Shown in pieces: positions 7,560 through 53,687 of a DNA stretch of 64,000 nucleotides. Origin of the DNA: a virus (lineage: Duplodnaviria > Heunggongvirae > Uroviricota > Caudoviricetes); IMG/VR virus record IMGVR_UViG_3300045538_000409; one strand, given 5' to 3'. Made by a program: the position numbers and the translations under genes. The first letter of the stretch is position 1. Every line of letters starts with the position of its first letter. The notes beneath the pieces were generated by a model, which saw only the letters and a program-made list of their open reading frames with translations, was not told the DNA's origin and searched no databases.

Positions 7560-8441
7560 ATGAAAAGACTTAAATTTAAAAAACCATTCAATGGAATGGA
7601 TAACGCAAAGAAGCTTATTCCAGAATCTTATAAGATTGATGGTAACGAGTTCGAAATAACTGATGGTAATGAAACTTATAGAGTTAAGTGGGAATCAGGT
7701 ATAAATGAAGGTACAATACTTTCATCATCTAATAAGGTTCAGATTAATGAGGACATGAAGAAGATGAAACACTTAATGGGTTTTAAATCTCAAGAGACAT
7801 TGGGAACCCTTAAAGGTAAAGAAAGAATTAACGAAAACAACAAATTTAGTGATGTATTCAATAAATCAAAGAAATTAATCAACGAAATGACTGTAGGTTA
7901 TGGATTTTCAAATGAAGGTAACCTTGAAGGACACGAAACCAATGAAGAATTCCATGATGAATCTTTAAAAGAAATGGACGGCGGAATGGAATCAGGAGTT
8001 TCAAGTATAGCTGATATCGCAAAAGAGCTTAAAAGTAAAGGGGCATCAATTAGTAAAGCTAATTTTACCACAAAAGAAAGAATGATTGTTGGTAAATTAT
8101 TAGATATTGTTGATGAGTTGTCTAAAGAATCTAATGGTTTTTCATCTCAAGTATTAACTAAATTAGAAGGATTAACTAGTGCAATAGATACTGCTATAAC
8201 AAAGAGTCCAACTCAAGGTGATGCAACTACTAGTTCAATTGGTGGTAATTCATCTAATATGGGGTTTAATGAATCTGAAGAATGTAATGAATGTGGCGAT
8301 AAGTACGAAATGGATAGATTTGATGAAATATTTGCAGGTATGTATGAGGAAGGTGAAGATTTCCCAGATTTAACTGGTGATGGTAAAGTAACTCAAGCTG
8401 ATATCCTTAAAGGTAGAGGAGTTTTTGAAGATGAAGAATAA
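7560..8441 (+). CDS. hypothetical protein, tandem paralog of the C-terminal domain of the upstream gene
   Basis: 293-aa ORF. LIPESYKIDGNEFEITDGNETYRVKWES...MKHLMGFKSQETLG is clearly homologous to the upstream protein. Confidence 0.55.
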   Translation: MKRLKFKKPFNGMDNAKKLIPESYKIDGNEFEITDGNETYRVKWESGINEGTILSSSNKVQINEDMKKMKHLMGFKSQETLGTLKGKERINENNKFSDVFNKSKKLINEMTVGYGFSNEGNLEGHETNEEFHDESLKEMDGGMESGVSSIADIAKELKSKGASISKANFTTKERMIVGKLLDIVDELSKESNGFSSQVLTKLEGLTSAIDTAITKSPTQGDATTSSIGGNSSNMGFNESEECNECGDKYEMDRFDEIFAGMYEEGEDFPDLTGDGKVTQADILKGRGVFEDEE

Positions 8442-8463
8442 TTTTTAATATTAAAATAAATTT

Positions 8464-8493
8464 ACCTCTCCCCTAAAAAGGAGAGGTTTTTTT
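8464..8493 (+). terminator. intrinsic terminator
   Basis: ACCTCTCC-CCTAAAAA-GGAGAGGTTTTTTT. Confidence 0.75.
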
Positions 8494-8527: not shown

Positions 8528-9064
8528 ATGGAAAAAGAAGTTTCAAAATATGTTACTTATGACGAAGTAATACATAGTAATACAGCTATAGCTAATAAAT
8601 TAAAGAATGAACCAACTGAGCAACAATTGGAATTAATAAAAGCATTATGTGTTAATGTTTTTGATAAACTTAGAGAACATTCTGGAGCAGCAATTAAAAT
8701 TAACTCAATATTTAGGGGGCCTCAATTAAATAAACATATTGGTGGCTCTAAAACCTCACAACATTGTGTTGGATTAGACCCTAAATTAAATAGTTACGGT
8801 GCGGCAATAGATATCGATGATGAATATTGGAAAAGAGGTGTTAATAAAATGAATAATACTGAGATGGGGTATTGGATAAAAGATAATTTAGATTTTGACC
8901 AAATTATTTTTGAAGTCCCAATTAATGGATATCCTAGCTGGATACATGTTTCTTATAGACCAGATGGTAAAAATAGAAAACAAGCATTAATATATATCAA
9001 TAAGAAGTATATACCATATGTTGGTAACGAACATTTAATTAAAAATCCTGATTTAGATAAATAA
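8528..9064 (+). CDS. peptidase M15-family cell-wall hydrolase (L-alanyl-D-glutamate peptidase-type endolysin)
   Basis: SIFRGPQLNKHIGGSKTSQHCVGLD...GAAIDID matches the M15 motif R-x-x-N-x-x-V-G-G-x-x-x-S-x-H-x-x-G-x-A-x-D. Confidence 0.7.
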   Translation: MEKEVSKYVTYDEVIHSNTAIANKLKNEPTEQQLELIKALCVNVFDKLREHSGAAIKINSIFRGPQLNKHIGGSKTSQHCVGLDPKLNSYGAAIDIDDEYWKRGVNKMNNTEMGYWIKDNLDFDQIIFEVPINGYPSWIHVSYRPDGKNRKQALIYINKKYIPYVGNEHLIKNPDLDK

Positions 9065-9103
9065 TATTTATTTTTAATTATATTATAGTATATTAGTAAT
9101 GTA

Positions 9104-9580
9104 ATGGAAAATACAAATAAAACAATAAAATTCTTGAACTATATAAAGACACCATTAAGTGAAAGTAGTATCGCTGTATTGTTAAGTGCTAACTGCATAA
9201 GATACGAGCGCATTCAATTGTACAATGATTTTGTTCAATCACTATTTCATTTAATATTTGATACTTATATGGGTGACAATTTCACATCGGAACCAAACAG
9301 GTTTGCACACTTTAAATGGTGTTGGGATAGAAATATCAATAACTTTAAAAATGAAGGTATTATATTCGAAAACACGGAAGAAGCTTACGATTATTTTTTA
9401 GAATTTATCTATGAGATTTACTACTCTGTACTAGAAAAAGAAAATAAACCAAAAATGACTAATACTATATGTGAGTTATGGGAAAAGTTATTTTCACAAA
9501 ATACAATAAAAACACGTTCAGATGTCGATAATTTTCTAGATGTTTATAAAATTTTAGATAATTCCTTAAAAAAGTCGTAA
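9104..9580 (+). CDS. hypothetical protein
   Basis: 158-aa ORF. Confidence 0.45.
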   Translation: MENTNKTIKFLNYIKTPLSESSIAVLLSANCIRYERIQLYNDFVQSLFHLIFDTYMGDNFTSEPNRFAHFKWCWDRNINNFKNEGIIFENTEEAYDYFLEFIYEIYYSVLEKENKPKMTNTICELWEKLFSQNTIKTRSDVDNFLDVYKILDNSLKKS

Positions 9581-20032: not shown

Positions 20033-20403
20033 GGGGCTGACATTGGAAATTGATTATTAAACGATTCTAATTGTAAGGAAGTAGTGTTAAATGGAAACAC
20101 TTTAATAACCTATTAATACTTTTAAATGACAACGAATTTAACGTTGAACAAAACTTCCTTGAAACTTCAATAGTTGAAGTATATAAAGGAGAGGTAGCAT
20201 TAGCCTAATTCGAGTAATGTATTTGTGGTAAAACCACACAACACACCAATACTAAGGTGTTAAAATAGTAAATATGGATTACTACACACCATATAAACAA
20301 CGTAGTAGATTTTTTGGAAAGTTTTTTATAAAAACTATGACCTAAACTTCTAGAAATCATTTAAAACTTTAATAAGATTTGAGTTCGAATCTCAACAGCT
20401 CCA
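20033..20403 (+). ncRNA. ssrA: tmRNA (ssrA), one-piece, CCA not encoded
   Basis: 5' end GGGGCUGACAUUGG and 3' end GAUUUGAG-UUCGAAU-CUCAA-CAGCUCC-A. The acceptor pair GGGGCUG/CAGCUCC is identical to E. coli ssrA, and the T-arm is canonical. A promoter (TTGACA 19970 plus TATATATTTG 19991) lies upstream. A candidate tag ORF starts at ~20127 and ends ...GEVALA-UAA at 20207-20209. Confidence 0.75.
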
Positions 20404-20435
20404 CGAATATTACTTTTTATCATTTTATGTAAAAA

Positions 20436-22282: not shown

Positions 22283-22427
22283 TAAAAGACTTGACAAACT
22301 AAAAATAATATACTATATTTGAGTATAGTTTCATTTAAATACGGAAATACTAAAGAAAGGGTTCAGCAACTTTTAACTTCGCTTGTAATACGAAAAAAAC
22401 CTTTCTGACTTTTCCAAAAAAAATATA

Positions 22428-22515
22428 CGGCGAGATAGTGTAATTGGTAACATGCTACACTCATAAGCTAGAGAAGTGGTAACATCATGTTGTTGGTTCG
22501 ATTCCAACCTTCGCA
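22428..22515 (+). tRNA. aberrant type-II tRNA-like element (CAU-like anticodon loop, long extra arm)
   Basis: Canonical T-arm GTTGG-TTCGATT-CCAAC and D-arm GTGT-AATTGGTA-ACAT. The acceptor stem pairs only at positions 2-6 (GGCGAGA/CTTCGCA), and the anticodon stem is 3 bp with loop CTCATAA. A terminator follows at 22522. Confidence 0.35.
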
Positions 22516-22521
22516 CAATTA

Positions 22522-28390: not shown

Positions 28391-29557
28391 ATGAAACAAA
28401 TAATTAAAAAAATGGTTAAACAAAAGTTACTTAAAGAAGAGAGGATAAAGTTAAATATACCTATTCCTGATGACATAATACAAATTAAAGATATATTCGT
28501 CAATAACGGATATAAGTTATATATTGTGGGTGGTTCTGTACGTGACTCATTACTTAACAAACCTATTAAGGATTACGATTTAGCTACTGACGCAACACCA
28601 GACCAAGTTGAAGATATAATGAATAAATCTGGTTTTAAAACACTACCAACTGGTAAAGCATTTGGGGTTATAAATGTGTTTACAGATACTAATGAATACG
28701 AAGTGGCCACGCTTAGGTCAGATGGGGAATATACAGATTCAAGGAGACCTGACTCAGTAACATTCAGCGATATAAACTCAGATGCAGCCAGAAGAGACCT
28801 GACATGTAACGCTTTATATTATGATATAGATACCAAGGAAGTCATTGACTTAGTTGGTGGTATAAATGACCTTAGAAAAGGTATAATACGAACTGTAGGT
28901 AAACCAGAAGATAGATTTAAAGAGGATAAGTTAAGAATTCTAAGAAGTATTCGTTTTGCGGGTAGATTTGGTTCAGAATTGGACCCCAACATTGATAAAG
29001 TATTAAGTAATGACAGTAGTCTTAAAGGTATATCACCTGAAAGGATTAGAGATGAGTTCTTAAAGACGATTAAAAGTGCTAAGAGCATACAACAAGTATT
29101 TTTATTAATTGATAAATATAAATTATGGAATGAAATTTTTCCAGGTATTGATATCAATAAGAAGTTTGTTGAATCCAAAGACCCAATTATTGTTATCAGT
29201 ACCCTTATATTAGGTAACGAACCATCGAACTTAAGTAAGATTTTAAATAAATTAACATATTCAATAAGTGAAAATAAAGCTATTACTTTTTTAATTTCAT
29301 TTAGTACATTTAACGATATAAACAATGTGTACAAGATGAAGAAACTATTTAACGCTTCAAATGTTACTAATGAACAATTAAGAGAATTTAATAATATTAA
29401 TAAAATCTTACCAAGTAATGTCGTTGACACATTTATTAATTTCCAACTTAGCGTTACTGGCGACCAAGTTCAAAGTGAATTAGGAATTAAACCAGGACCA
29501 GAAATGGGTAAAACTATTGAAAAAATGGAAATTGATAACTTTAATAAACTTTTATAA
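28391..29557 (+). CDS. cca: tRNA nucleotidyltransferase (CCA-adding enzyme), with N-terminal CTS-like extension
   Basis: Head-domain motifs LYIVGGSVRD, DYDLATDA, RRD(L)TCNALYYD and ATLRSDGEYTDSRRPD. N-terminus MKQIIKKMVKQKLLKE precedes the catalytic core. Confidence 0.8.
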   Translation: MKQIIKKMVKQKLLKEERIKLNIPIPDDIIQIKDIFVNNGYKLYIVGGSVRDSLLNKPIKDYDLATDATPDQVEDIMNKSGFKTLPTGKAFGVINVFTDTNEYEVATLRSDGEYTDSRRPDSVTFSDINSDAARRDLTCNALYYDIDTKEVIDLVGGINDLRKGIIRTVGKPEDRFKEDKLRILRSIRFAGRFGSELDPNIDKVLSNDSSLKGISPERIRDEFLKTIKSAKSIQQVFLLIDKYKLWNEIFPGIDINKKFVESKDPIIVISTLILGNEPSNLSKILNKLTYSISENKAITFLISFSTFNDINNVYKMKKLFNASNVTNEQLREFNNINKILPSNVVDTFINFQLSVTGDQVQSELGIKPGPEMGKTIEKMEIDNFNKLL

Positions 29558-30894: not shown

Positions 30895-31842
30895 ATGAAG
30901 AGTAATATAAGAAAAATCTTAAGGGAAAATGTTAATACTAATGTATTAGGTATAACGATTACAAGACCAAATCAAGAATTGATTGTAATGGTAGGAATTC
31001 CTGGTAGTGGAAAATCTACAAAAGCTAAAGAATTGGTTGGTAATGGTCAAATTTTTTCAACTGATGATAGAATTGAATCACAAGGTGATTATTTAGAGTT
31101 TTTTAACAAAATGATTAATTCTAAGGATTTCACACCATTAAGTAATATGCACAACTTGAATTTCACAATGGCAAAAAAAGCCATGAAGACAGGTACAACT
31201 CCAGTAATTATTGATAACACTAATTTATCACCATCTGAATCTAAGAAATATGTTGAAGAAGCCTTATTATTAGGATATGCTGATGATAATATTAAATTTA
31301 TTGAAATTGGTACTGGTGGTTTATCGGCTGAAGAATTGGCAAATAGAAACACTCATGGTGTTCCGCTGGACAAAATTCAATCAATGATTCAAAAATATAA
31401 TTCACATAAACCAATGACTCTTAATAAAGTTTTAAATTCAAAATCAATTGATAATAAAAAAACTAACTTAATTGCTAGTTTAGTATTAGATGATACATCG
31501 CACGATAAATTAATTAAACTAGTAAAGGATTACATCCCTAAAGGTTGGAAAGTTTTTGCACATCATATGACTATTAATTTTGGGAATGGGTTACCTGAAA
31601 ATCTTAAGAGTGATTTAGGTAAAGTTAAATCTATTACTGCAACTGAGATTGGCGTTTCTGATATGGCTATAGCGGTAAGGGTTGAAGGATATCATTCGGA
31701 TAACAAAATTCCTCATATTACTATAGCGGTTAATGTGGCAGAAGGTGGTCGCCCTGTAATGTCTAATAATATTACTAATTGGAGCAAATTAGAAAATAAA
31801 ATTAATCTATCTGGAGTCATTTCTGAAGAAAAATTGAATTAA
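30895..31842 (+). CDS. polynucleotide 5'-kinase (T4 Pnk-like) fused to 2H-family cyclic phosphodiesterase; CTS-like N-terminus
   Basis: P-loop IVMVGIPGSGKST. Blocks VIIDNTNLSPSE and HGVPLDKIQSMIQKY are collinear with T4 Pnk (GCPGSGKST, VIISDTNLNPERR, VPIDVLRSMYKSM). The C-terminus has two H-x-T motifs (HHMTI, HITIA), a 2H phosphoesterase signature. N-terminus MKSNIRKILRE. Confidence 0.75.
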   Translation: MKSNIRKILRENVNTNVLGITITRPNQELIVMVGIPGSGKSTKAKELVGNGQIFSTDDRIESQGDYLEFFNKMINSKDFTPLSNMHNLNFTMAKKAMKTGTTPVIIDNTNLSPSESKKYVEEALLLGYADDNIKFIEIGTGGLSAEELANRNTHGVPLDKIQSMIQKYNSHKPMTLNKVLNSKSIDNKKTNLIASLVLDDTSHDKLIKLVKDYIPKGWKVFAHHMTINFGNGLPENLKSDLGKVKSITATEIGVSDMAIAVRVEGYHSDNKIPHITIAVNVAEGGRPVMSNNITNWSKLENKINLSGVISEEKLN

Positions 31843-33911: not shown

Positions 33912-34169
33912 ATGGTAATTTTATATTTTTTAGTAACATTTGTTATATTTTTCTTCATGTATAAGAAATACTGGCCTTTAATCAATCGTAAAATGAAGAT
34001 ACATGGCTATTATAATTGGATAGATTGCTCAGAGTTTTGGATAATGATTATTATCCCATTATTTTGGGTAATTTCACTACCATTATATTTTTTATGGTTA
34101 TTTTTGGATTATATATACGAAAGATATATCGTAAATAAGGATAAAACGGGGAACGCTGAAAACCGTTAA
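33912..34169 (+). CDS. small membrane protein
   Basis: 85-aa ORF with two TM helices. Confidence 0.4.
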   Translation: MVILYFLVTFVIFFFMYKKYWPLINRKMKIHGYYNWIDCSEFWIMIIIPLFWVISLPLYFLWLFLDYIYERYIVNKDKTGNAENR

Positions 34170-34207
34170 TAGAGTAAGCAAATAGCAATTTAATTTAAAT
34201 TTTAAAA

Positions 34208-38979: not shown

Positions 38980-40095
38980 ATGGAACTAAACATCGTTAAA
39001 CATATAAAAAAATATGGTCTAGAAAAGGCCATTATTGATTTTGATTTAATATGCAAGGAGAATGGCAATCTTATATTACTTAAATACAATCAAATATCCT
39101 CTCCAATGGACAAAATAGAGGTTCAAGAATCTAGAGGTTTAATATTAGAAAAAGGTACATATAAGGTTATTTCAATGGCCTTTATGAAATTTTTCAATCA
39201 TGGTGAAACTAACGCAGCAAATATTGACTGGGACTCAGCGCATGTTTTAGATAAATTAGATGGGTCGCTACTTTCTTTATATCATTATAATGACACTTGG
39301 AATGTTTGTACAACAGGAACCATTAATGGTGAAGGTGAAGTTAATAATAAATATGGAACTACATTTAGAGATTTGTTTTGGGGTACAATAAATAGTAAAT
39401 ATAATTTCAATATTAATAAATTAAATAGTGACTATATATATGCTTTTGAATTAACGACACCTTATAATATTGTTGTTAAACCACATAGTGAATCATCCGC
39501 AACACTTCTTACAATTAGAAATAGAGAAAATCTTAAAGAAATACCTTATAATGAGTTAATTCCAGTTGCCAATGAATTAGGTGTACCTTTAGTTAAAAGG
39601 TATGATTTTAACATTAAAAATGTTGATGTTTTAATTAAGACTTTTGAAAATATGCCATGGTCAGAGGAAGGTTATATTGTTTTAGATGGTAACTTTAGTA
39701 GAATTAAGATAAAAAATCCAGCATATGTTGCGGTTCATTTATTAAAAAATAGAACATCAGAACATTCAATAATGGAAATTGTTAAGTCTAATGAAATTGA
39801 AGAGTTTGCATCAACATTTATAGAGAGAAGAGAAGAGATTTATAATCTTCATAAAAACTATAATGAATTAATTAATAAATTAGAAAATATATGGAAATTG
39901 CTTGAACCATTAAAACCAAAAGACATATCTCCAGAAGAAAAAAAGAGGTATGCTATGGAAGTCTTTAGAGTATGTGAAGAAAATGATATTAAGATGTTTA
40001 CAGGACTTTATTTTGGTTTAAACGATGGTAAAATTGAATCTATTGGTGAATATATGATGAATTATGATAATAAAAGATTATATCAAATTTTATGA
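38980..40095 (+). CDS. ATP-dependent RNA ligase (Rnl family)
   Basis: Nucleotidyltransferase motif I KLDGS, motif IV EGYIVLDG and motif V RIKIKNPAY. Confidence 0.75.
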   Translation: MELNIVKHIKKYGLEKAIIDFDLICKENGNLILLKYNQISSPMDKIEVQESRGLILEKGTYKVISMAFMKFFNHGETNAANIDWDSAHVLDKLDGSLLSLYHYNDTWNVCTTGTINGEGEVNNKYGTTFRDLFWGTINSKYNFNINKLNSDYIYAFELTTPYNIVVKPHSESSATLLTIRNRENLKEIPYNELIPVANELGVPLVKRYDFNIKNVDVLIKTFENMPWSEEGYIVLDGNFSRIKIKNPAYVAVHLLKNRTSEHSIMEIVKSNEIEEFASTFIERREEIYNLHKNYNELINKLENIWKLLEPLKPKDISPEEKKRYAMEVFRVCEENDIKMFTGLYFGLNDGKIESIGEYMMNYDNKRLYQIL

Positions 40096-43981: not shown

Positions 43982-45157
43982 ATGAAACAGATAACACATG
44001 AATATTTAGTAGAAAATAATCTTATATTATTTGAAGTTATAGTTGGTAGTCAAGCACACGGGACTAGTTTACCTACTAGTGACGAAGACCGAAAATTCGT
44101 ATATATTTTACCAGAAGAATTTATTTTGGGTAATAAATATGTTGAACAAATTGATATCAACAAGGACTATACTGGCTGGGAGATAAGAAGATTCTTAGAG
44201 TTGTTAGAGTCTAATAATCCTACCGTATTTGAAATTTTGTATAGTCCAGAGGATTGTATAATTACAAAACATCCATTATTTGATATATTAATAAATAATA
44301 GAGATAAGTTTATCACTAAGATTTGTAAAAACTCATTTGGCGGATATGCACGCCAACAGATTACTAAGGCGAAGGCGCTTAATAAAAAACAGAACTGGGA
44401 AAAAGAAAAAATAACTCGTAAAGATGTCTTAGATTTTTGTTACGTAATCGAAGGTAATAAGACTACCCCATGGAGATTATGGAATGAAGCTAATCACTAC
44501 GATGAAAAATTTATTGGTGTGGTAAACACACCGAACGCTAGGGATATTTATGCGGTTTATTTTGATGTTGACGCTAACAATTGCTTCAGCGAGAAAATGC
44601 CAGAAGAGCTAAGAGAGGCAGCTAAAAAATGGAGAAAAGAAAGTGGTGCATCAATGGGGTTTGGCTATAAAGGGCTTGTAAAGAGTGGTGAGGGTAATAA
44701 TATTACTGAATCAAACCAATTAAGACTATCTAGTATTCCTAAAGGTGAAAAACCTATTGCAGTTATTTCTTATAATAAGGATGGTTACACTCAGCATTGT
44801 AAGGATTATAGAGAATACCAAGAATGGCTTGAAAAACGTAATGAAACTAGATATGTTGAAACTAAAACACATGGTCAACAAATAGACGGTAAAAATATGT
44901 TACACTGTGTTAGACTTATTAATATGGCAACAGAAATAGCTGAAGGTAAAGGTGTTCAAGTCCGCAGACCAGATAGAGAATACTTATTATCTATCAGAAG
45001 GGGTGAAGTACCCTTAGAAGAACTTATTGATTTAGCTAATGAAAAAATTAACAAGTTAGATGAGTTATTTGATAAATCAAACCTACCTGATAAAGTTGAA
45101 GATGGTTTAGTACATAAATTGTTAGTTGATATTAGAAAAAACTTCTATAATCGATAA
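43982..45157 (+). CDS. putative nucleotidyltransferase (Pol-beta-like fold)
   Basis: N-terminal VGSQAHGTSLPTSDEDRKFVYI matches the GS...DxD motif. The 391-aa specific family is not resolved. Confidence 0.5.
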   Translation: MKQITHEYLVENNLILFEVIVGSQAHGTSLPTSDEDRKFVYILPEEFILGNKYVEQIDINKDYTGWEIRRFLELLESNNPTVFEILYSPEDCIITKHPLFDILINNRDKFITKICKNSFGGYARQQITKAKALNKKQNWEKEKITRKDVLDFCYVIEGNKTTPWRLWNEANHYDEKFIGVVNTPNARDIYAVYFDVDANNCFSEKMPEELREAAKKWRKESGASMGFGYKGLVKSGEGNNITESNQLRLSSIPKGEKPIAVISYNKDGYTQHCKDYREYQEWLEKRNETRYVETKTHGQQIDGKNMLHCVRLINMATEIAEGKGVQVRRPDREYLLSIRRGEVPLEELIDLANEKINKLDELFDKSNLPDKVEDGLVHKLLVDIRKNFYNR

Positions 45158-47785: not shown

Positions 47786-47851
47786 TAACTTTTTGACTTA
47801 TAATCAAAAACAGTTGGTTCAAACCCAACACTTTAAATGCCATCCTGTATT

Positions 47852-47935
47852 TGCTAGTGTGGTGGAATTGGTAGACACACCGTCCTAAGGAGGCGGTGCT
47901 CGAAAGAGCGTGAGGGTTCGAGTCCCTCCATTAGT
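47852..47935 (+). tRNA. tRNA-Leu (anticodon AAG), type II
   Basis: Acceptor GCTAGTG/CATTAGT (two G-U pairs). Anticodon arm CCGTC-CTAAGGA-GGCGG. Variable arm GCTC-GAAA-GAGC. T-arm GAGGG-TTCGAGT-CCCTC. An A34 anticodon is unusual. Confidence 0.7.
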
Positions 47936-49859: not shown

Positions 49860-50258
49860 ATGGACAATATATTATTAAATCAATTAATTAAAGCGTATAA
49901 GCAACACGGTAAAATTATAGTGGGTGTTGATTTTGACGACACAGTATTCCCATTCAATAAGGATGAGGAGAATGTTAATAGATGTGCTAGAGTGGTTGAA
50001 CTATTAAAAATTAATAGAGATATCATTACAATATGTTTATTTAGTGTGGCTGATAAACAATCTTTAATATATAAAGAACACATTATGGACTTATACGGTA
50101 TCAAACCAGACTATATAAATGAATCACCTATTGTTAAATGGGGGGTATGTAATAAACCTTATTTCAATATTCAATTAGATGATAAAGCTGGTTTAAATGA
50201 GGCACTTGAAACTATTAGAGAATTTTTCAGATATGTTTCTATATTAATAAACGATTAA
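49860..50258 (+). CDS. hypothetical small HAD-like protein
   Basis: IIVGVDFDDTVFPF resembles HAD motif I. Only 132 aa. Confidence 0.4.
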   Translation: MDNILLNQLIKAYKQHGKIIVGVDFDDTVFPFNKDEENVNRCARVVELLKINRDIITICLFSVADKQSLIYKEHIMDLYGIKPDYINESPIVKWGVCNKPYFNIQLDDKAGLNEALETIREFFRYVSILIND

Positions 50259-50291
50259 TATTATTAAATACTTGTATAAATAAAAAAATAT

Positions 50292-50302
50292 TAGTATATT
50301 TG
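50292..50302 (+). promoter_or_regulatory. promoter motif TAGTATATTTG driving the ncRNA cluster A-B-C
   Basis: Exact 11-mer 16 nt upstream of element A. No protein start follows. Confidence 0.5.
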
Positions 50303-50318
50303 TAAAAGGTTTTATAAA

Positions 50319-50449
50319 AGAATAGTTACAGCAAATTTTAACTTATTTGAACCGCTATACTGTAGGTTCAAGTCCTACCCTCCCAACTAATTTTACAATG
50401 GGAGGTGGTGAAATTGGTAAACACGGTGGTAAAGTTTAAACGCTATTCT
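50319..50449 (+). ncRNA. stem-closed ncRNA element A with circularly permuted tRNA-like module (YrlA/Y-RNA-like architecture)
   Basis: Promoter motif TAGTATATTTG at 50292-50302. Closing helix AGAATAG (50319-25) / CTATTCT (50443-49). Inside are a T-arm GTAGG-TTCAAGT-CCTAC (50362-78), acceptor 3' strand CCTCCCA (50379-85), a 13-nt loop, acceptor 5' strand TGGGAGG (50399-405), and a D-arm TG-GTG-AAATTGGTAAA-CAC closely similar to the D-arm of tRNA-Leu(AAG). Confidence 0.6.
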
Positions 50450-50484
50450 GTTAAAATCTTAGTACAAGAAATTAAAAAAATTAA

Positions 50485-50545
50485 AGAGTGGTTTCAGCAA
50501 ACTTTTATACTCAAACTTTTACTTTGAACCTATAAACGCCACTCT
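50485..50545 (+). ncRNA. stem-closed ncRNA element B
   Basis: Closing helix AGAGTGG/CCACTCT enclosing TTTCAGCAAACTTTTATACTCAAACTTTTACTTTGAACCTATAAACG. Shares the CAGCAAA-TTTTA and TTTGAACC motifs with element A. Confidence 0.45.
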
Positions 50546-50559
50546 GAAAATATTAGACT

Positions 50560-50678
50560 AAGTGAAGCCTCTTCCGAAAGGAACGTAACTTAGTTAGGGA
50601 ATATAGCTCAATGGTAGAGTAACTGGCGTGTCAAGCCAGAGGATGGTGTGTTCAATTCCACCTATTTCCACTTCACTT
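50560..50678 (+). ncRNA. stem-closed ncRNA element C containing tRNA-Asp-like module
   Basis: 8-bp closing helix AAGTGAAG (50560-67) / CTTCACTT (50671-78). An internal hairpin CTTCCGAAAGGAAC is followed by the tRNA-Asp(GTC)-like module 50597-50670. Confidence 0.5.
50597..50670 (+). tRNA. tRNA-Asp(GTC)-like module embedded in stem-closed element C; T-arm non-canonical
   Basis: Acceptor GGGAATA/TATTTCC. D-arm GCTC-AATGGTA-GAGT. Anticodon arm CTGGC-GTGTCAA-GCCAG. The T region GGTG-TGTTCAATTC-CACC has a 4-bp stem and a 10-nt loop. Confidence 0.5.
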
Positions 50679-50693
50679 AATAATATAAAAAAT

Positions 50694-50918
50694 ATGGATT
50701 TACAAGATTTCAGAACCGTACATAGAGTACACGCTGATAGTCAGCTAGTTATTCAATGGTACGCCTATAAAGCAAAAGGCGAATATAAAACTTGGGTTAG
50801 TCAAGCTTTTGCGTCCGCTTCCAACGAAGATAAACAAAAAATAATCGATAAATGGATAACTAATCACCCAAATAAACCTAAGTCTTGGGTTTGGATTATA
50901 ACAAAAATAACAGATTAA
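50694..50918 (+). CDS. hypothetical protein
   Basis: Track ORF 50628..50918 overlaps the tRNA-Asp-like element, so the internal start MDLQDF was chosen. Confidence 0.4.
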   Translation: MDLQDFRTVHRVHADSQLVIQWYAYKAKGEYKTWVSQAFASASNEDKQKIIDKWITNHPNKPKSWVWIITKITD

Positions 50919-50954
50919 CGAGATTTTATTATAAAATAAAAAAAATGTGTAACT

Positions 50955-51422
50955 ATGGGAAATAATTTTGATGATTTATTTAATGAGTTTTTTGGTAATA
51001 ATAAACGAAAAAGAAAGAAAATTAATAAGGGTATTATGAATAATTTTTATGACGATATAAAAAATACATTAAACCTTAATAATGATGTTGATGCAACTCA
51101 AGATTTAATTAATAAATTAAATTCATTTGTTGAAGATTTAAATAATGAAGACTTTGCTAACCCTTATGGAGAAAAATTAGGTGAGCCAGATGTTATTGAA
51201 AATTACGAAAAAGATGGACTTCATTTTGAAAAGAAAATATGGAATCTTGAACATGGTCAAATGATAAAAATTAATATGTTGTCAACACCATTTGAGTCGA
51301 ATATTAAAACTAATAATGTCTTATCTCTTGAAAAACAATTGGAATTAGCTTTAAATGAAGAGCGATATGAAGACGCCACAAAGTTAAGAGATGAAATTAA
51401 ATCTAACAAAAAAAGTAAATAA
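50955..51422 (+). CDS. UVR-domain-containing protein
   Basis: C-terminal LEKQLELALNEERYEDATKLRDEI matches the UvrB/UvrC-type UVR motif. Confidence 0.5.
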   Translation: MGNNFDDLFNEFFGNNKRKRKKINKGIMNNFYDDIKNTLNLNNDVDATQDLINKLNSFVEDLNNEDFANPYGEKLGEPDVIENYEKDGLHFEKKIWNLEHGQMIKINMLSTPFESNIKTNNVLSLEKQLELALNEERYEDATKLRDEIKSNKKSK

Positions 51423-51486
51423 TAATTACATTATTCACTAACTTAAATGGACAATCCTTGAGTAAGGTCCTAAACTCTCTGGGGCC

Positions 51487-51593
51487 AGGAAGAAAAACAT
51501 TTGGTAATGTCTATGCAAATAGCTTATAGCCGAGGACTACAAGATAGTTACAGCTCACAAAACTAAGGTGTGAGTTCGATTCTCACTTCTTCC
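51487..51593 (+). tRNA. over-long (107 nt) tRNA-like element with ~36-nt internal insertion
   Basis: Acceptor GGAAGAA/TTCTTCC is perfect. D-arm ACAT-TTGGTA-ATGT. T-arm GTGAG-TTCGATT-CTCAC. The 59-nt central region has no canonical anticodon arm and carries the motif ATAGTTACAGC shared with element A at 50322. Confidence 0.4.
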
Positions 51594-51616
51594 ACTAACA
51601 ATAAAAACTATAAAAT

Positions 51617-51925
51617 ATGAAAATAAAACTTATTAACCAGGACGAACATTTAGTTGAATATGTTATAAAAGAAAAAAAGACTAAAGAAGGGAATAGAAAG
51701 ATGCTTTTAAAAACATCTAAGTCTGATATTTGGGTTGATTTTGCAAAAAATAAAAAACAAGTTGAAATTATTGAGATAGGTGATGATTTTTTAATCAAGA
51801 TACAGGACAAACCTGATATGATTTTAGATGCATCTCAATTACAGGTGTTACAATTACTATTAAATAATTTTGTATTAGAAACAGATAATTTTTCACCTGG
51901 TTACGAAAGACTAATAAAAAAATAA
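51617..51925 (+). CDS. hypothetical protein
   Basis: 102-aa ORF. Confidence 0.4.
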   Translation: MKIKLINQDEHLVEYVIKEKKTKEGNRKMLLKTSKSDIWVDFAKNKKQVEIIEIGDDFLIKIQDKPDMILDASQLQVLQLLLNNFVLETDNFSPGYERLIKK

Positions 51926-52689: not shown

Positions 52690-52720
52690 TTGATAATTAA
52701 AAACATTTACAGTATATTTG
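52690..52720 (+). promoter_or_regulatory. promoter (TTGATAA ... CAGTATATTTG) upstream of small ORF and tRNA cluster
   Basis: TTG at 52690 and TATATTTG at 52713-20. Confidence 0.4.
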
Positions 52721-53052: not shown

Positions 53053-53120
53053 CTAAAGGATGAATACAGCAAATAAAAAAAAACTACATTTTGGATTGTA
53101 TAAACTTCATCCTGTTTTTT

Positions 53121-53193
53121 GCGAGAGTAGCTCAATTGATAGAGCGCCTGCCTTCCAAGCAGGGGGTTGAGGGTTTGAGCCCCTTCTCTCGCT
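53121..53193 (+). tRNA. tRNA-Gly (anticodon TCC)
   Basis: Acceptor GCGAGAG/CTCTCGC. D-arm GCTC-AATTGATA-GAGC. Anticodon arm CCTGC-CTTCCAA-GCAGG. T-arm GAGGG-TTTGAGC-CCCTT. Confidence 0.85.
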
Positions 53194-53433: not shown

Positions 53434-53503
53434 CGGGAGTATCGTCAGGGTACTGGGCGGCTCTGTAAAAGCACCCCTTGGAGGTTCGATTCCTCCTGCT
53501 CCC
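53434..53503 (+). tRNA. short tRNA-like element (70 nt), anticodon undetermined
   Basis: Acceptor GGGAGTA/TGCTCCC (one G-U). Canonical T-arm GGAGG-TTCGATT-CCTCC. D/anticodon region GTCAGGGTACTGGGCGGCTCTGTAAAAGCACCCC is not foldable canonically. Two hairpins precede it (53362-53384, 53393-53410). Confidence 0.35.
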
Positions 53504-53687
53504 ACTCTAGGACGTTTTTTGCACAATATTAAATAATTAACAAAAAGCAAACTAATAGTTTATTAATTAGAACTAAAATAAACCATTTAAAATAAATTAT
53601 TATGAAAAATTTAATTAAATTAAAACGAAAATTTAAACCCTAAAACACTCGACTAACAAGTTACGGGTGTTATTAGGAAAACTATAT

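Follow-up and report, generated by a model that had tools for sequence, protein, structure and literature searches.

Candidate Y RNA-like scaffold RNAs displaying tRNA parts in a tailed phage that also encodes a predicted Ro60-fold protein

Introduction

Conservation of Y RNAs and Ro60 extends from bacteria to humans. In the bacterial Y RNA YrlA, the two ends are paired in a stem that holds the Ro60 site, with GNCGAAN0-1G on the 5' strand. The tRNA-like domain of YrlA has the order anticodon (AC) strand, variable region (V), T arm, closed acceptor stem, D arm and AC strand, and in Mycobacterium smegmatis its 7-bp acceptor stem is cut by RNase P and receives a CCA tail (Chen et al. 2014, PMC4201824; Wang et al. 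2018, 10.1101/312249). Two phage systems are also relevant. Thermus phage phiLo codes for a Ro60 with the RNAs Yrl1 and Yrl2 (PMC12135203; structures 9KOP, 9L5Y). Phage Bas63 codes for the Ro60-like protein gp130. In a preprint, its gene is reported to stand immediately ahead of the tRNA genes and to counteract the Ppl defence system, and the authors surmised that there may be Y RNAs among the Bas63 "tRNAs" (PhageMaP, PMC11482910). Here, we compare with these systems a locus from a virus of the Caudoviricetes. The window, i.e. the whole stretch of 64,000 nucleotides (nt) that was analyzed from IMG/VR virus record IMGVR_UViG_3300045538_000409, is A+T-rich, and its nearest cultured kin by DNA are the Tenacibaculum jumbo phages PTm1 and PTm5 (72% identity, 218 nt). 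The elements in question are A (50319..50450) and B (50485..50546), both on the plus strand. On balance, we consider it probable that they are small non-coding RNAs of a Y RNA-like phage family, with a handle for a Ro60-fold protein and an interior that displays parts of a tRNA.

A sequence-only reading of the window had described A and B, together with a third element C, as a promoter-driven cluster of stem-closed RNAs. The sequence features that it listed for A, B and C are all found where it had placed them. A and B are paralogous stem-closed RNAs; they have the closing helix (P1) and the motif next to it in common. That first account omitted the anticodon-arm mimic of B, the further copies at 22354 and 53057 and the wide spread of the family among phages.

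Anatomy of Element A

Element A, a scaffold RNA with a circularly permuted tRNA-Leu-like body, was found by a regular-expression scan, by the model R1 (see below) and, after de-permutation, by ARAGORN. Its ends form helix P1 (AGAATAG, 50319-50325, with CTATTCT, 50443-50449), which is followed by a conserved unpaired G (G50450). Directly 3' of the first strand of P1 lies the single-stranded motif TTACAGCAA (50326..50334; consensus N-T-W-C-N-G-C-A-A). A 16-nt linker leads from it to ACCGC (50351..50355), which pairs over 5 bp with GTGGT (50426-50430) in the position of an anticodon stem. TATACT separates ACCGC from the T arm GTAGG-TTCAAGT-CCTAC (50362..50378). The acceptor hairpin (50379..50405) consists of CCTCCCA (50379-85), the 13-nt loop ACTAATTTTACAA and TGGGAGG (50399-405). 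It is followed by the U8-G9 linker and the D arm GTG-AAATTGGTAAA-CAC (50406..50424; D arm 50408-24). A single G joins the D arm to GTGGT, and a 12-nt A-rich linker precedes the 3' strand of P1. All of these parts are on the plus strand.

The nucleotides that make tertiary contacts in tRNA are all present in A: U8 (T50406), A14, A15:U48 (T50361), G18G19 and T54-A58. The last of these come from the T loop TTCAAGT, while A14, A15 and GG are provided by the D loop AAATTGGTAAA. The TG/TA linker is kept across the parsed members of the family. As had been noticed from the letters, the D-arm region is nearly identical to that of tRNA-Leu(AAG) at 47853 (18/20 positions). Because of this match, and because the orthologues of A have a long variable arm, its body is regarded as tRNA-Leu-like.

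An anticodon loop is absent from A. In their native form, neither A nor B is called a tRNA by RF00005 or ARAGORN, and no Rfam family matches either of them at E<=10 in 50200-51900. When the halves of A were joined via the 5-bp stem with an artificial anticodon loop, the de-permuted sequence was called a tRNA by ARAGORN. The same holds for two orthologues, compared to 0/1000 shuffles.

An orphan T arm (GTTGG-TTCAAAC-CCAAC) is located at 47813-47829, 24 nt upstream of tRNA-Leu(AAG), and no tRNA is called there. A long tRNA-like element at 51487-51595 has the acceptor GGAAGAA/TTCTTCC, the D arm ACAT/ATGT and the T arm GTGAG-TTCGATT-CTCAC. About 59 nt stand in place of its anticodon arm, and no convincing fold was obtained for the element. 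Its sole Rfam match is sub-threshold (tRNA-Sec, 26.6 bits versus 47). The 11-mer ATAGTTACAGC is common to this element and the 5' end of A, and the element may be an unpermuted tRNA that has received a scaffold as an insert.

Comparative Support for the Structure

Homologues of the upstream gene gave access to orthologues of A; loci used for comparison are designated by L numbers. The acceptor strands are CCTCTCA/TGAGAGG in L095, compared to CCTCCCA/TGGGAGG in A, so that both sides have changed. ACCGC/GCGGT is found in both L095 and L088, and the acceptor loop of L088 starts with ACCA. In the homologue alignment A3, ACAGCAA is invariant. The near-identical strain contigs L002-L006 (97% identity) are uninformative for such a comparison.

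Because MAFFT misaligned the acceptor loops and 3' ends of the full-length homologues, nine seeds, trimmed of their variable loops, were used to build R1. Element A scores 75.7 bits with R1, of which it is itself a seed. In the loci retrieved with an RNA pattern (see below), R1 has 55 matches, 49 of them distinct. Pairs were counted on untrimmed matches only, which include the parents of some seeds. For the 49 distinct sequences, in an alignment fitted to the model structure, standard pairs occupy 95.2% of the cells versus 59.8% in shuffles and ~40% with slid partners; 434 cells are changed on both sides versus 123 in shuffles. P1 is paired in 97% of the cells, with changes on both sides at 7/7 pairs. 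The AC-like stem (helix 2) is paired in 84.9% (5/5 pairs changed on both sides) and occurs as ACCGC/GCGGT, ACTGG/CCGGT, ACTGC/GCAGT, ACAGA/TCTGT and TCAGG/CTTGA. The corresponding values are 99.6% (3/5 pairs) for the T stem (helix 3), 94.6% (7/7 pairs) for the acceptor hairpin (helix 4) and 98.5% (3/3 pairs) for the D stem. Covariation supports all five helices of the scaffold and the permuted tRNA. The order of the parts and these paired changes agree with the earlier description of A, in which a loop caps the acceptor stem of a tRNA and the closing helix continues from the position of the anticodon stem.

Among 66 parsed members, ten have N-CCA right after the 3' acceptor strand, compared to a background of 1.1% per position. 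In other members, the acceptor is closed by loops of 3-6 nt. Element A belongs to the group with a long loop.

The Scaffold Family

A strict signature was defined as AGR-N4, NTWC and NGCAA, followed within 260 nt by the complementary 7-mer and G. On the plus strand of the window, there are five occurrences of its 5' part, 5/5 of them closed by a perfect 7-bp helix with G; on the minus strand, there is none. In 300 Markov-simulated windows, the mean number of motif sites was 0.17, and none was closed. A loose expression that accepts any 7-mer has a background of ~4 matches per strand per 64 kb. Its 527 "elements" include chance matches and are therefore not used as a count; numbers quoted here refer to the strict signature or to model matches only.

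A long form of the scaffold RNA (14706..14871, plus strand) starts 8 nt past the stop codon of the gene for a DUF2828 protein (see below) and is followed by a terminator-like hairpin (14878-14912). It begins with AGAATGC-GTAC-GGCAA and ends with GCATTCT-G. That the 5' end of A matches this RNA had been seen from the letters and is borne out. Position and signature of the long form recur in related phages. For this gene-adjacent RNA, Rfam has no match at E<=10. A short form (22354..22407, plus strand; R1 16.5 bits) is located between a promoter-like box at 22311 and tRNA-Met at 22429. Another one (53057..53114, plus strand; R1 29.2 bits, E 5e-6) starts 3 nt past tRNA-Pro (which ends at 53053) and ends 6 nt before tRNA-Gly (which starts at 53121). 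Such a placement next to tRNA genes would allow scaffold RNAs and tRNAs to be produced and set free jointly.

At gathering score, Rfam reports nothing for the homologues in 12 other loci. A description of this RNA class was found neither in Rfam 15 nor in the searchable literature, neither of which is exhaustive. In current annotations, the elements are missed, called "tRNA-OTHER" or overlaid with hypothetical open reading frames (ORFs).

Further observations concern variants of the scaffold and their surroundings. The long form (14706-14871; L009-L015, L058) has a conserved interior of its own (GTTGTTTCC..., CTTC...GAAG). GAG/GGG in the loop of its CTTC-GAAG hairpin and CTC/CCC further downstream seem to change together, which points to a pseudoknot. 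In a "mini" form (L092 119-215; L093 158-254; L095 2105-2201), the tRNA part carried by the scaffold is reduced to the T arm and an acceptor hairpin of 7 bp (CCTCCCC/GGGGAGG), the D arm being absent. In L109 (1890-2006) and L173 (800-923), the scaffold encloses D, full anticodon and T arms in unpermuted order; no acceptor stem is recognizable in these members, where it is replaced by the scaffold helix. A GOLLD RNA (194.9 bits, L167 2958-3395) and a RAGATH-34 RNA (76.7 bits, L128 6283-6387) were each found in a tRNA-rich phage region that also holds scaffold RNAs. The tRNA-Met directly after the 22354 RNA (22429-22516) is 88 nt long, with an apparent insertion, and scores 29.7 bits with the Rfam tRNA model (threshold 29).

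Linkage to a Gene for a Ro60-Fold Protein

The gene at 13262..14698 (plus strand) codes for a protein with the Pfam domains DUF2828 and DUF7788, which belongs to PHROG 850 ("RNA-binding protein"). It had been called a Ro60 gene in the sequence-only reading. Among Pfam domains, only DUF2828 and DUF7788 match, TROVE (PF05731) and vWA_Ro60 (PF25045) being absent, and there is no sequence match in the Protein Data Bank (PDB). The AlphaFold2 model of the protein has a predicted local distance difference test (pLDDT) of 75.6 and a predicted template modelling score (pTM) of 0.66. When this model was compared to the PDB with Foldseek, the top three matches were Ro60 structures: 9KOP (template modelling (TM) score 0.60/0.62, E 5.6e-8), 9L5Y and human Ro60 (9NEN). 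The alignment to Ro60 extends over ~500 columns. The protein is predicted to have the Ro60 fold, with a helical repeat domain and a vWA domain. 

Homologues with DUF2828 are found in 711 cultured phage records, where those from mycobacteriophages are labelled "Ro-like RNA binding protein". The linkage between gene and RNA was approached from both sides. A protein-first sample comprised 80 DUF2828 loci from IMG/VR with 3 kb of flank. Strict RNA copies were found in 39/80 loci, with 49 copies on the strand of the gene and 0 on the opposite strand. Many start 10-40 nt past the stop codon of the DUF2828 gene. Matches to R1 in 86 loci (80 of them the DUF2828 loci) are all on the plus strand (37/37), which is the strand of the protein match used to fetch the locus. 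In L083, L085 and L086, permuted-tRNA copies lie less than 600 nt from the DUF2828 gene.

The RNA-first sample was collected with the pattern ACAGCAA, 15-45 nt, AGGTTCRANTCCTA, with no protein criterion and no helix required, and comprised 120 loci. A DUF2828 homologue is encoded within the fetched stretch in 52 of these. A perfect 7-bp helix with G in exact register is present at 51/113 sites, compared to 3-9 in shifted or reversed controls. In addition, 27 sites have a 7/7 acceptor hairpin right after the T arm, versus 3-9 in controls.

Among cultured phages, E. coli phage heid (Felixounavirus) has four scaffold RNAs, one of them permuted tRNA-like, in a tRNA cluster directly after the DUF2828 gene, which is annotated as "vWFA protein" (L216 7713-8481). 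The four RNAs are located at 7713-7780, 7880-7935, 8268-8336 and 8355-8481. This region is kept in 260 Felixounavirus records. Among the records listed, the corresponding stretches are unannotated or are annotated as tRNA, tRNA-OTHER, tRNA-Pseudo or hypothetical protein, and never as non-coding RNA (ncRNA). In Vibrio phage ValKK3, the gene is present, with no recognized scaffold RNA within 4 kb.

Element B and Anticodon-Arm Mimics

Element B has the same scaffold as A, with P1 (AGAGTGG/CCACTCT and G), the motif TTTCAGCAA and a second helix, P2 (TTTATA/TATAAA). Its interior holds an anticodon-arm mimic, TCAAA-CTTTTAC-TTTGA (50511..50527, plus strand), the loop of which resembles that of tRNA-Lys with anticodon UUU. 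In the orthologue from L095, ATG/CAT replaces ATA/TAT in P2, and the loop is CTTTTAA, which is identical to the anticodon loop of the phage's own tRNA-Lys.

Such mimics recur in the family. A 5-bp stem with a 7-nt loop of the type Y-U-NNN-R-N is present in 39/225 short or medium forms, compared to 4.0+-1.8 with shuffled interiors. As "anticodons", these loops have UUU (14), GUU (6), GCU (3) and UGU (3), the others being scattered. Judged by these loops, the mimics would most often resemble the arms for Lys-UUU, Asn-GUU, Thr-UGU and Ser-GCU.

Element C

The core of element C (50597..50671, plus strand) is a genuine tRNA-Asp(GUC), called by ARAGORN and by Rfam. Its T stem contains a single bulged U, and CCA is not encoded. 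It scores 51.1 bits with the Rfam tRNA model (gathering score 29) and has a standard cloverleaf with an anticodon loop. An 8-bp helix flanks it on the plus strand (AAGTGAAG, 50560-67, with CTTCACTT, 50671-78). One pair of this helix is lost in L002 and L088, and no counterpart is visible in L095. The helix around C is therefore not conserved. We rejected C as a third scaffolded module and treat it as an ordinary tRNA-Asp gene: the tRNA-Asp that had been recognized from the letters, with its aberrant T arm, is complete, but it is not a third closed element.

In L002 (~1735-1745), the anticodon loop of tRNA-Asp is GTATCAA for GTGTCAA, which corresponds to anticodon AUC for GUC. In the anticodon stem of this gene, one C is also replaced by T, and an additional A follows the stem (equivalent to 50630-50640 of the window).

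Genomic Setting

TAnnTTTG is the -7 consensus of Bacteroidetes. A box of this type, TAGTATATTTG, is located at 50292..50302 on the plus strand, 17 nt upstream of A; the exact promoter motif that had been reported ahead of the cluster is indeed there. With at most one mismatch, the promoter-like motif has 19 sites in the window, compared to 5.75 expected, and 18 of these are on the plus strand. The box at 22311 is ahead of the 22354 element, and a similar one at 52710 is ahead of the tRNA cluster that contains 53057. A, B and tRNA-Asp are probably made jointly from one promoter at 50292.

The cassette of A, B and tRNA-Asp is absent from L089-L091, where the upstream gene is 93% identical and is followed by an unrelated 260-nt spacer. 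In L088, it occurs at a different place (7578-7946), after an inserted block with a phosphoribosyltransferase, a nucleoside 2-deoxyribosyltransferase-like protein and a NAPRTase. Since the cassette is missing in L089-L091 and moved in L088, it is considered accessory, which fits a fast-changing function. In PTm1, a cassette of this kind is absent from the syntenic position. A search with the 132-aa protein encoded upstream found no relatives among viral contigs, and an exact 21-mer of A is absent from the viral contigs that were searched. In L095, a more distant relative, ~250 nt of extra, G+C-richer and apparently non-coding DNA separate the orthologues of A and B (8880-9134). Downstream of the B orthologue of L095 lies a tRNA with an Rfam score of 46.9 bits that is missed by ARAGORN.

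The window also codes for a tRNA nucleotidyltransferase (CCA-adding enzyme, 28391-29557), a PNK-like kinase (30895-31842), a T4 Rnl1-type RNA ligase (38980-40095) and an RlaP nucleotidyltransferase (43982-45157). These constitute a toolkit of the phage for tRNA maturation and repair. None of the tRNAs that ARAGORN calls in the window has an encoded CCA. After tRNA-Gln, at 53434-53505, a tRNA-like sequence has the acceptor GGGAGTA/TGCTCCC and a perfect T arm (GGAGG-TTCGATT-CCTCC). Its D and anticodon region is irregular, and it is reported neither by ARAGORN nor by Rfam at gathering score. Other features of the window are a one-piece transfer-messenger RNA (tmRNA) at 20033-20404 with the tag EVYKGEVALA (ARAGORN), a DUF805b RNA motif (40 bits, 34145-34180) and genes for a full DnaJ (16566-17639) and a ClpP protease (18833-19570).

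Proposed Mechanism and Alternative Explanations

We propose that the common module, i.e. the end helix of 7-8 bp with the unpaired Y-N-G-C-A-A on its 5' strand and the G on its 3' side, is the handle to be bound by the DUF2828/DUF7788 protein. The interior would be what differs: A would display an L-shaped tRNA-Leu-like body and B a tRNA-Lys(UUU)-like anticodon stem-loop. Both RNAs would be co-transcribed with tRNA-Asp from the promoter at 50292 and separated from it by tRNA-processing enzymes. The displayed tRNA part might then recruit a tRNA-recognizing factor to the Ro60-like ring, or divert such a factor from real tRNAs; a repair or maturation enzyme and a host tRNA-targeting nuclease are candidates. 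Given its 13-nt loop, the ACCA in L088 and the precedent of M. smegmatis YrlA, A is perhaps opened by RNase P and given a CCA; cleavage in the acceptor loop with CCA addition is plausible. Anticodon nucleases that act on tRNA-Lys are known, e.g. AriB of PARIS (PMC10802454), and by analogy a decoy role for the Lys-like mimics is conceivable, though speculative. A more far-reaching version, which we put forward tentatively and with considerable doubt, is that DUF2828 proteins generally use a common RNA handle for swappable tRNA parts. The ribonucleoprotein (RNP) would be a modular decoy or recruiter against tRNA-targeting immunity of the host, such as anticodon nucleases of the PrrC or PARIS type or the Ppl system, and the acceptor loop of A-type members may open to yield a two-piece, CCA-ended and possibly chargeable mimic.

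Several points weigh against a Y RNA-like function of A and B. The RNAs are known here from sequence alone, from which we infer their transcription and their binding by the protein. The protein model is of moderate confidence only, and sequence identity to Ro60 is 14-15%. Element A itself is located 36 kb from the DUF2828 gene. When folded as a single sequence, A has a z-score of -1.2 and its tRNA-like fold is not recovered; for B, the result is not significant. Since folding alone does not single A out, the support is comparative. Here, the percentage of paired cells is inflated because the alignment was fitted to the model structure, while the variety of pair types is less affected. The preference for UUU among the mimics could partly be due to the A+T-rich composition. 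The YrlA model RF02553 has no match at E<=10 in 50200-51900 or 12900-15300. The same mode of search recovers YrlA of mycobacteriophage Bxz1 as a positive control (32.5 bits, E 1.7e-4). As the YrlA model is blind to A and the CGAA motif is absent, homology to Y RNAs is not established. Finally, the orthology of Bas63 gp130 to the protein of the window would rest on synteny within Felixounavirus.

Other explanations have to account for the same observations. The scaffolds might be processing spacers of phage tRNA operons, with the helix and ACAGCAA being read by an RNase or processing factor; they would be discarded once the tRNAs are mature and would not act with the Ro60-like protein. We consider this improbable, even though many copies lie a few nt from tRNA genes and A, B and the tRNA are one apparent transcription unit. 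Spacers would leave unexplained the copy after the DUF2828 gene, which has a terminator and no tRNA nearby, as well as the two-way linkage to this gene with its 49:0 strand bias. They also give no reason for a full tRNA elbow with tertiary contacts or for canonical 7-nt anticodon loops. A slightly lower probability is assigned to A being a split or permuted tRNA-like RNA that acts independently of Ro60. Its loop would be cut, CCA added and the product aminoacylated, leucine being the candidate, for use in translation or peptide tagging in the manner of a two-piece tmRNA. Leucyl-tRNA synthetase (LeuRS) does not read the anticodon. The 7-bp acceptor, the discriminator A, the Leu-type D arm and the long variable arms of the orthologues would suit such a role. 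So would N-CCA in 10/66 members, the ACCA in L088, the CCA-adding enzyme of the phage and the M. smegmatis YrlA, which is cut and CCA-tailed. Against this, A has no anticodon loop, tag frame or pseudoknots, and a normal tmRNA is encoded at 20033. Moreover, A has CTA and not CCA at the point in question, and the acceptor loops of 3-6 nt in many members cannot be ordinary substrates of RNase P.

That A is an accident of tRNA gene decay seems very improbable to us. Chen et al. warned of "dimeric tRNA" false positives (PMC4201824), and a juxtaposition of this kind does exist in the window, where the orphan T arm at 47813 and the D arm of tRNA-Leu(AAG) together score 20.3 bits with R1. In A, however, the acceptor strands are complementary and covary in orthologues, and its outer halves pair over 5 bp in one stem and over 7 bp in the closing helix. 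With other sequences, this design is found again in dozens of unrelated contigs. A handle for the Ro60-fold protein that displays tRNA parts is the explanation that we prefer.

Comparison with YrlA and Other Known Systems

The likeness to YrlA is one of architecture. In both, a terminal helix is formed by the 5' and 3' ends, and a conserved unpaired motif is located right after its 5' strand. AC stem, variable region, T arm, loop-closed acceptor, D arm and AC stem follow each other in this order, an anticodon loop is absent, and the nucleotides for tRNA tertiary contacts are kept. The family is encoded beside a Ro60-fold protein gene, in the same orientation, and in phages it is often accompanied by a second, simpler paralogue (YrlB-like). 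Differences concern the motif, the partner and the placement. The scaffold motif is Y-N-G-C-A-A, with TTACAGCAA in A, compared to GNCGAAN0-1G in YrlA; in the Bxz1 YrlA, GCCGAGAG is found right after the closing helix. The partner has DUF2828/DUF7788 and not TROVE/vWA_Ro60, whereas gp220 of Bxz1, downstream of its YrlA, matches both TROVE and vWA_Ro60. Scaffold copies are dispersed over tRNA clusters and can be as far as 36 kb from the gene. A YrlA would be expected within ~4 kb of a TROVE Ro60 gene on the same strand; for A, the distance is 36 kb and the gene is not TROVE. Sister scaffold RNAs show anticodon-arm mimics, which are not mentioned for YrlA (PMC4201824, 10.1101/312249).

The earlier YrlA reading of A is upheld for the architecture and dropped for family membership, given that RF02553 does not match and GNCGAAN0-1G is absent. 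The features that define a Y RNA by function, a terminal helix with a conserved feature and a genomic link to a Ro60-fold protein gene, were both found. Judged from its sequence, A would work like YrlA, yet it falls outside YrlA as a sequence family.

Some systems are similar in a single respect. In two-piece tmRNA genes, the T arm and 3' acceptor strand, a loop and the 5' acceptor strand also follow each other, and some members of the family have NCCA. Unlike these, A has a full D arm and is devoid of a tag frame, pseudoknots and the alanine identity pair. It ends 45 nt past the 5' acceptor strand. ARAGORN, which also looks for permuted tmRNA genes, finds no tmRNA other than the one-piece form at 20033. 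Circularly permuted tRNA genes are known from an archaeon and from red and green algae; these likewise have a loop-closed acceptor and ends that pair at the anticodon-stem position. Their precursors have an anticodon loop, which A lacks, and are matured to normal tRNAs via a circular intermediate by a splicing endonuclease. An endonuclease of that type has not been reported in bacteria (10.1101/312249). The stable RNAs C and D of phage T4 (species 1 and 2) are also small stable RNAs at the end of a phage tRNA cluster, and rnaC has a T arm and an acceptor-like 3' end. We rejected rnaC and rnaD as family members, as they have neither the signature of P1 with NTWC-NGCAA nor the permuted order.

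Phage phiLo is closest with respect to the protein. It also combines a phage Ro60-fold protein with gene-adjacent Y-like RNAs, and its Ro60 is the best structural match to the protein of the window (TM 0.60/0.62), at only 15% identity. The phiLo RNAs differ in having been picked by the CGAA motif, and a complex with PNPase (RYPER-like) was shown for phiLo (PMC12135203). The DUF2828 proteins would represent a second lineage of Ro60-fold proteins in phages, which is much larger and has predicted RNA partners of its own. Their scaffold RNAs have the architecture of YrlA with a different handle, in versions that display different parts of tRNA. 

Bas63 is closest with respect to gene arrangement. 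Its gp130 gene and tRNA cluster are arranged as in phage heid, both being Felix O1-like coliphages. The difference is that the RNAs were left unidentified in that study, the anti-Ppl role having been shown for the protein gene (PMC11482910). The scaffold RNAs found here would be the RNA partners of a gp130-type protein. Since Felix O1-like coliphages carry the same RNAs, the role of tRNA mimicry in Ro60 RNPs becomes testable in an easy genetic system.

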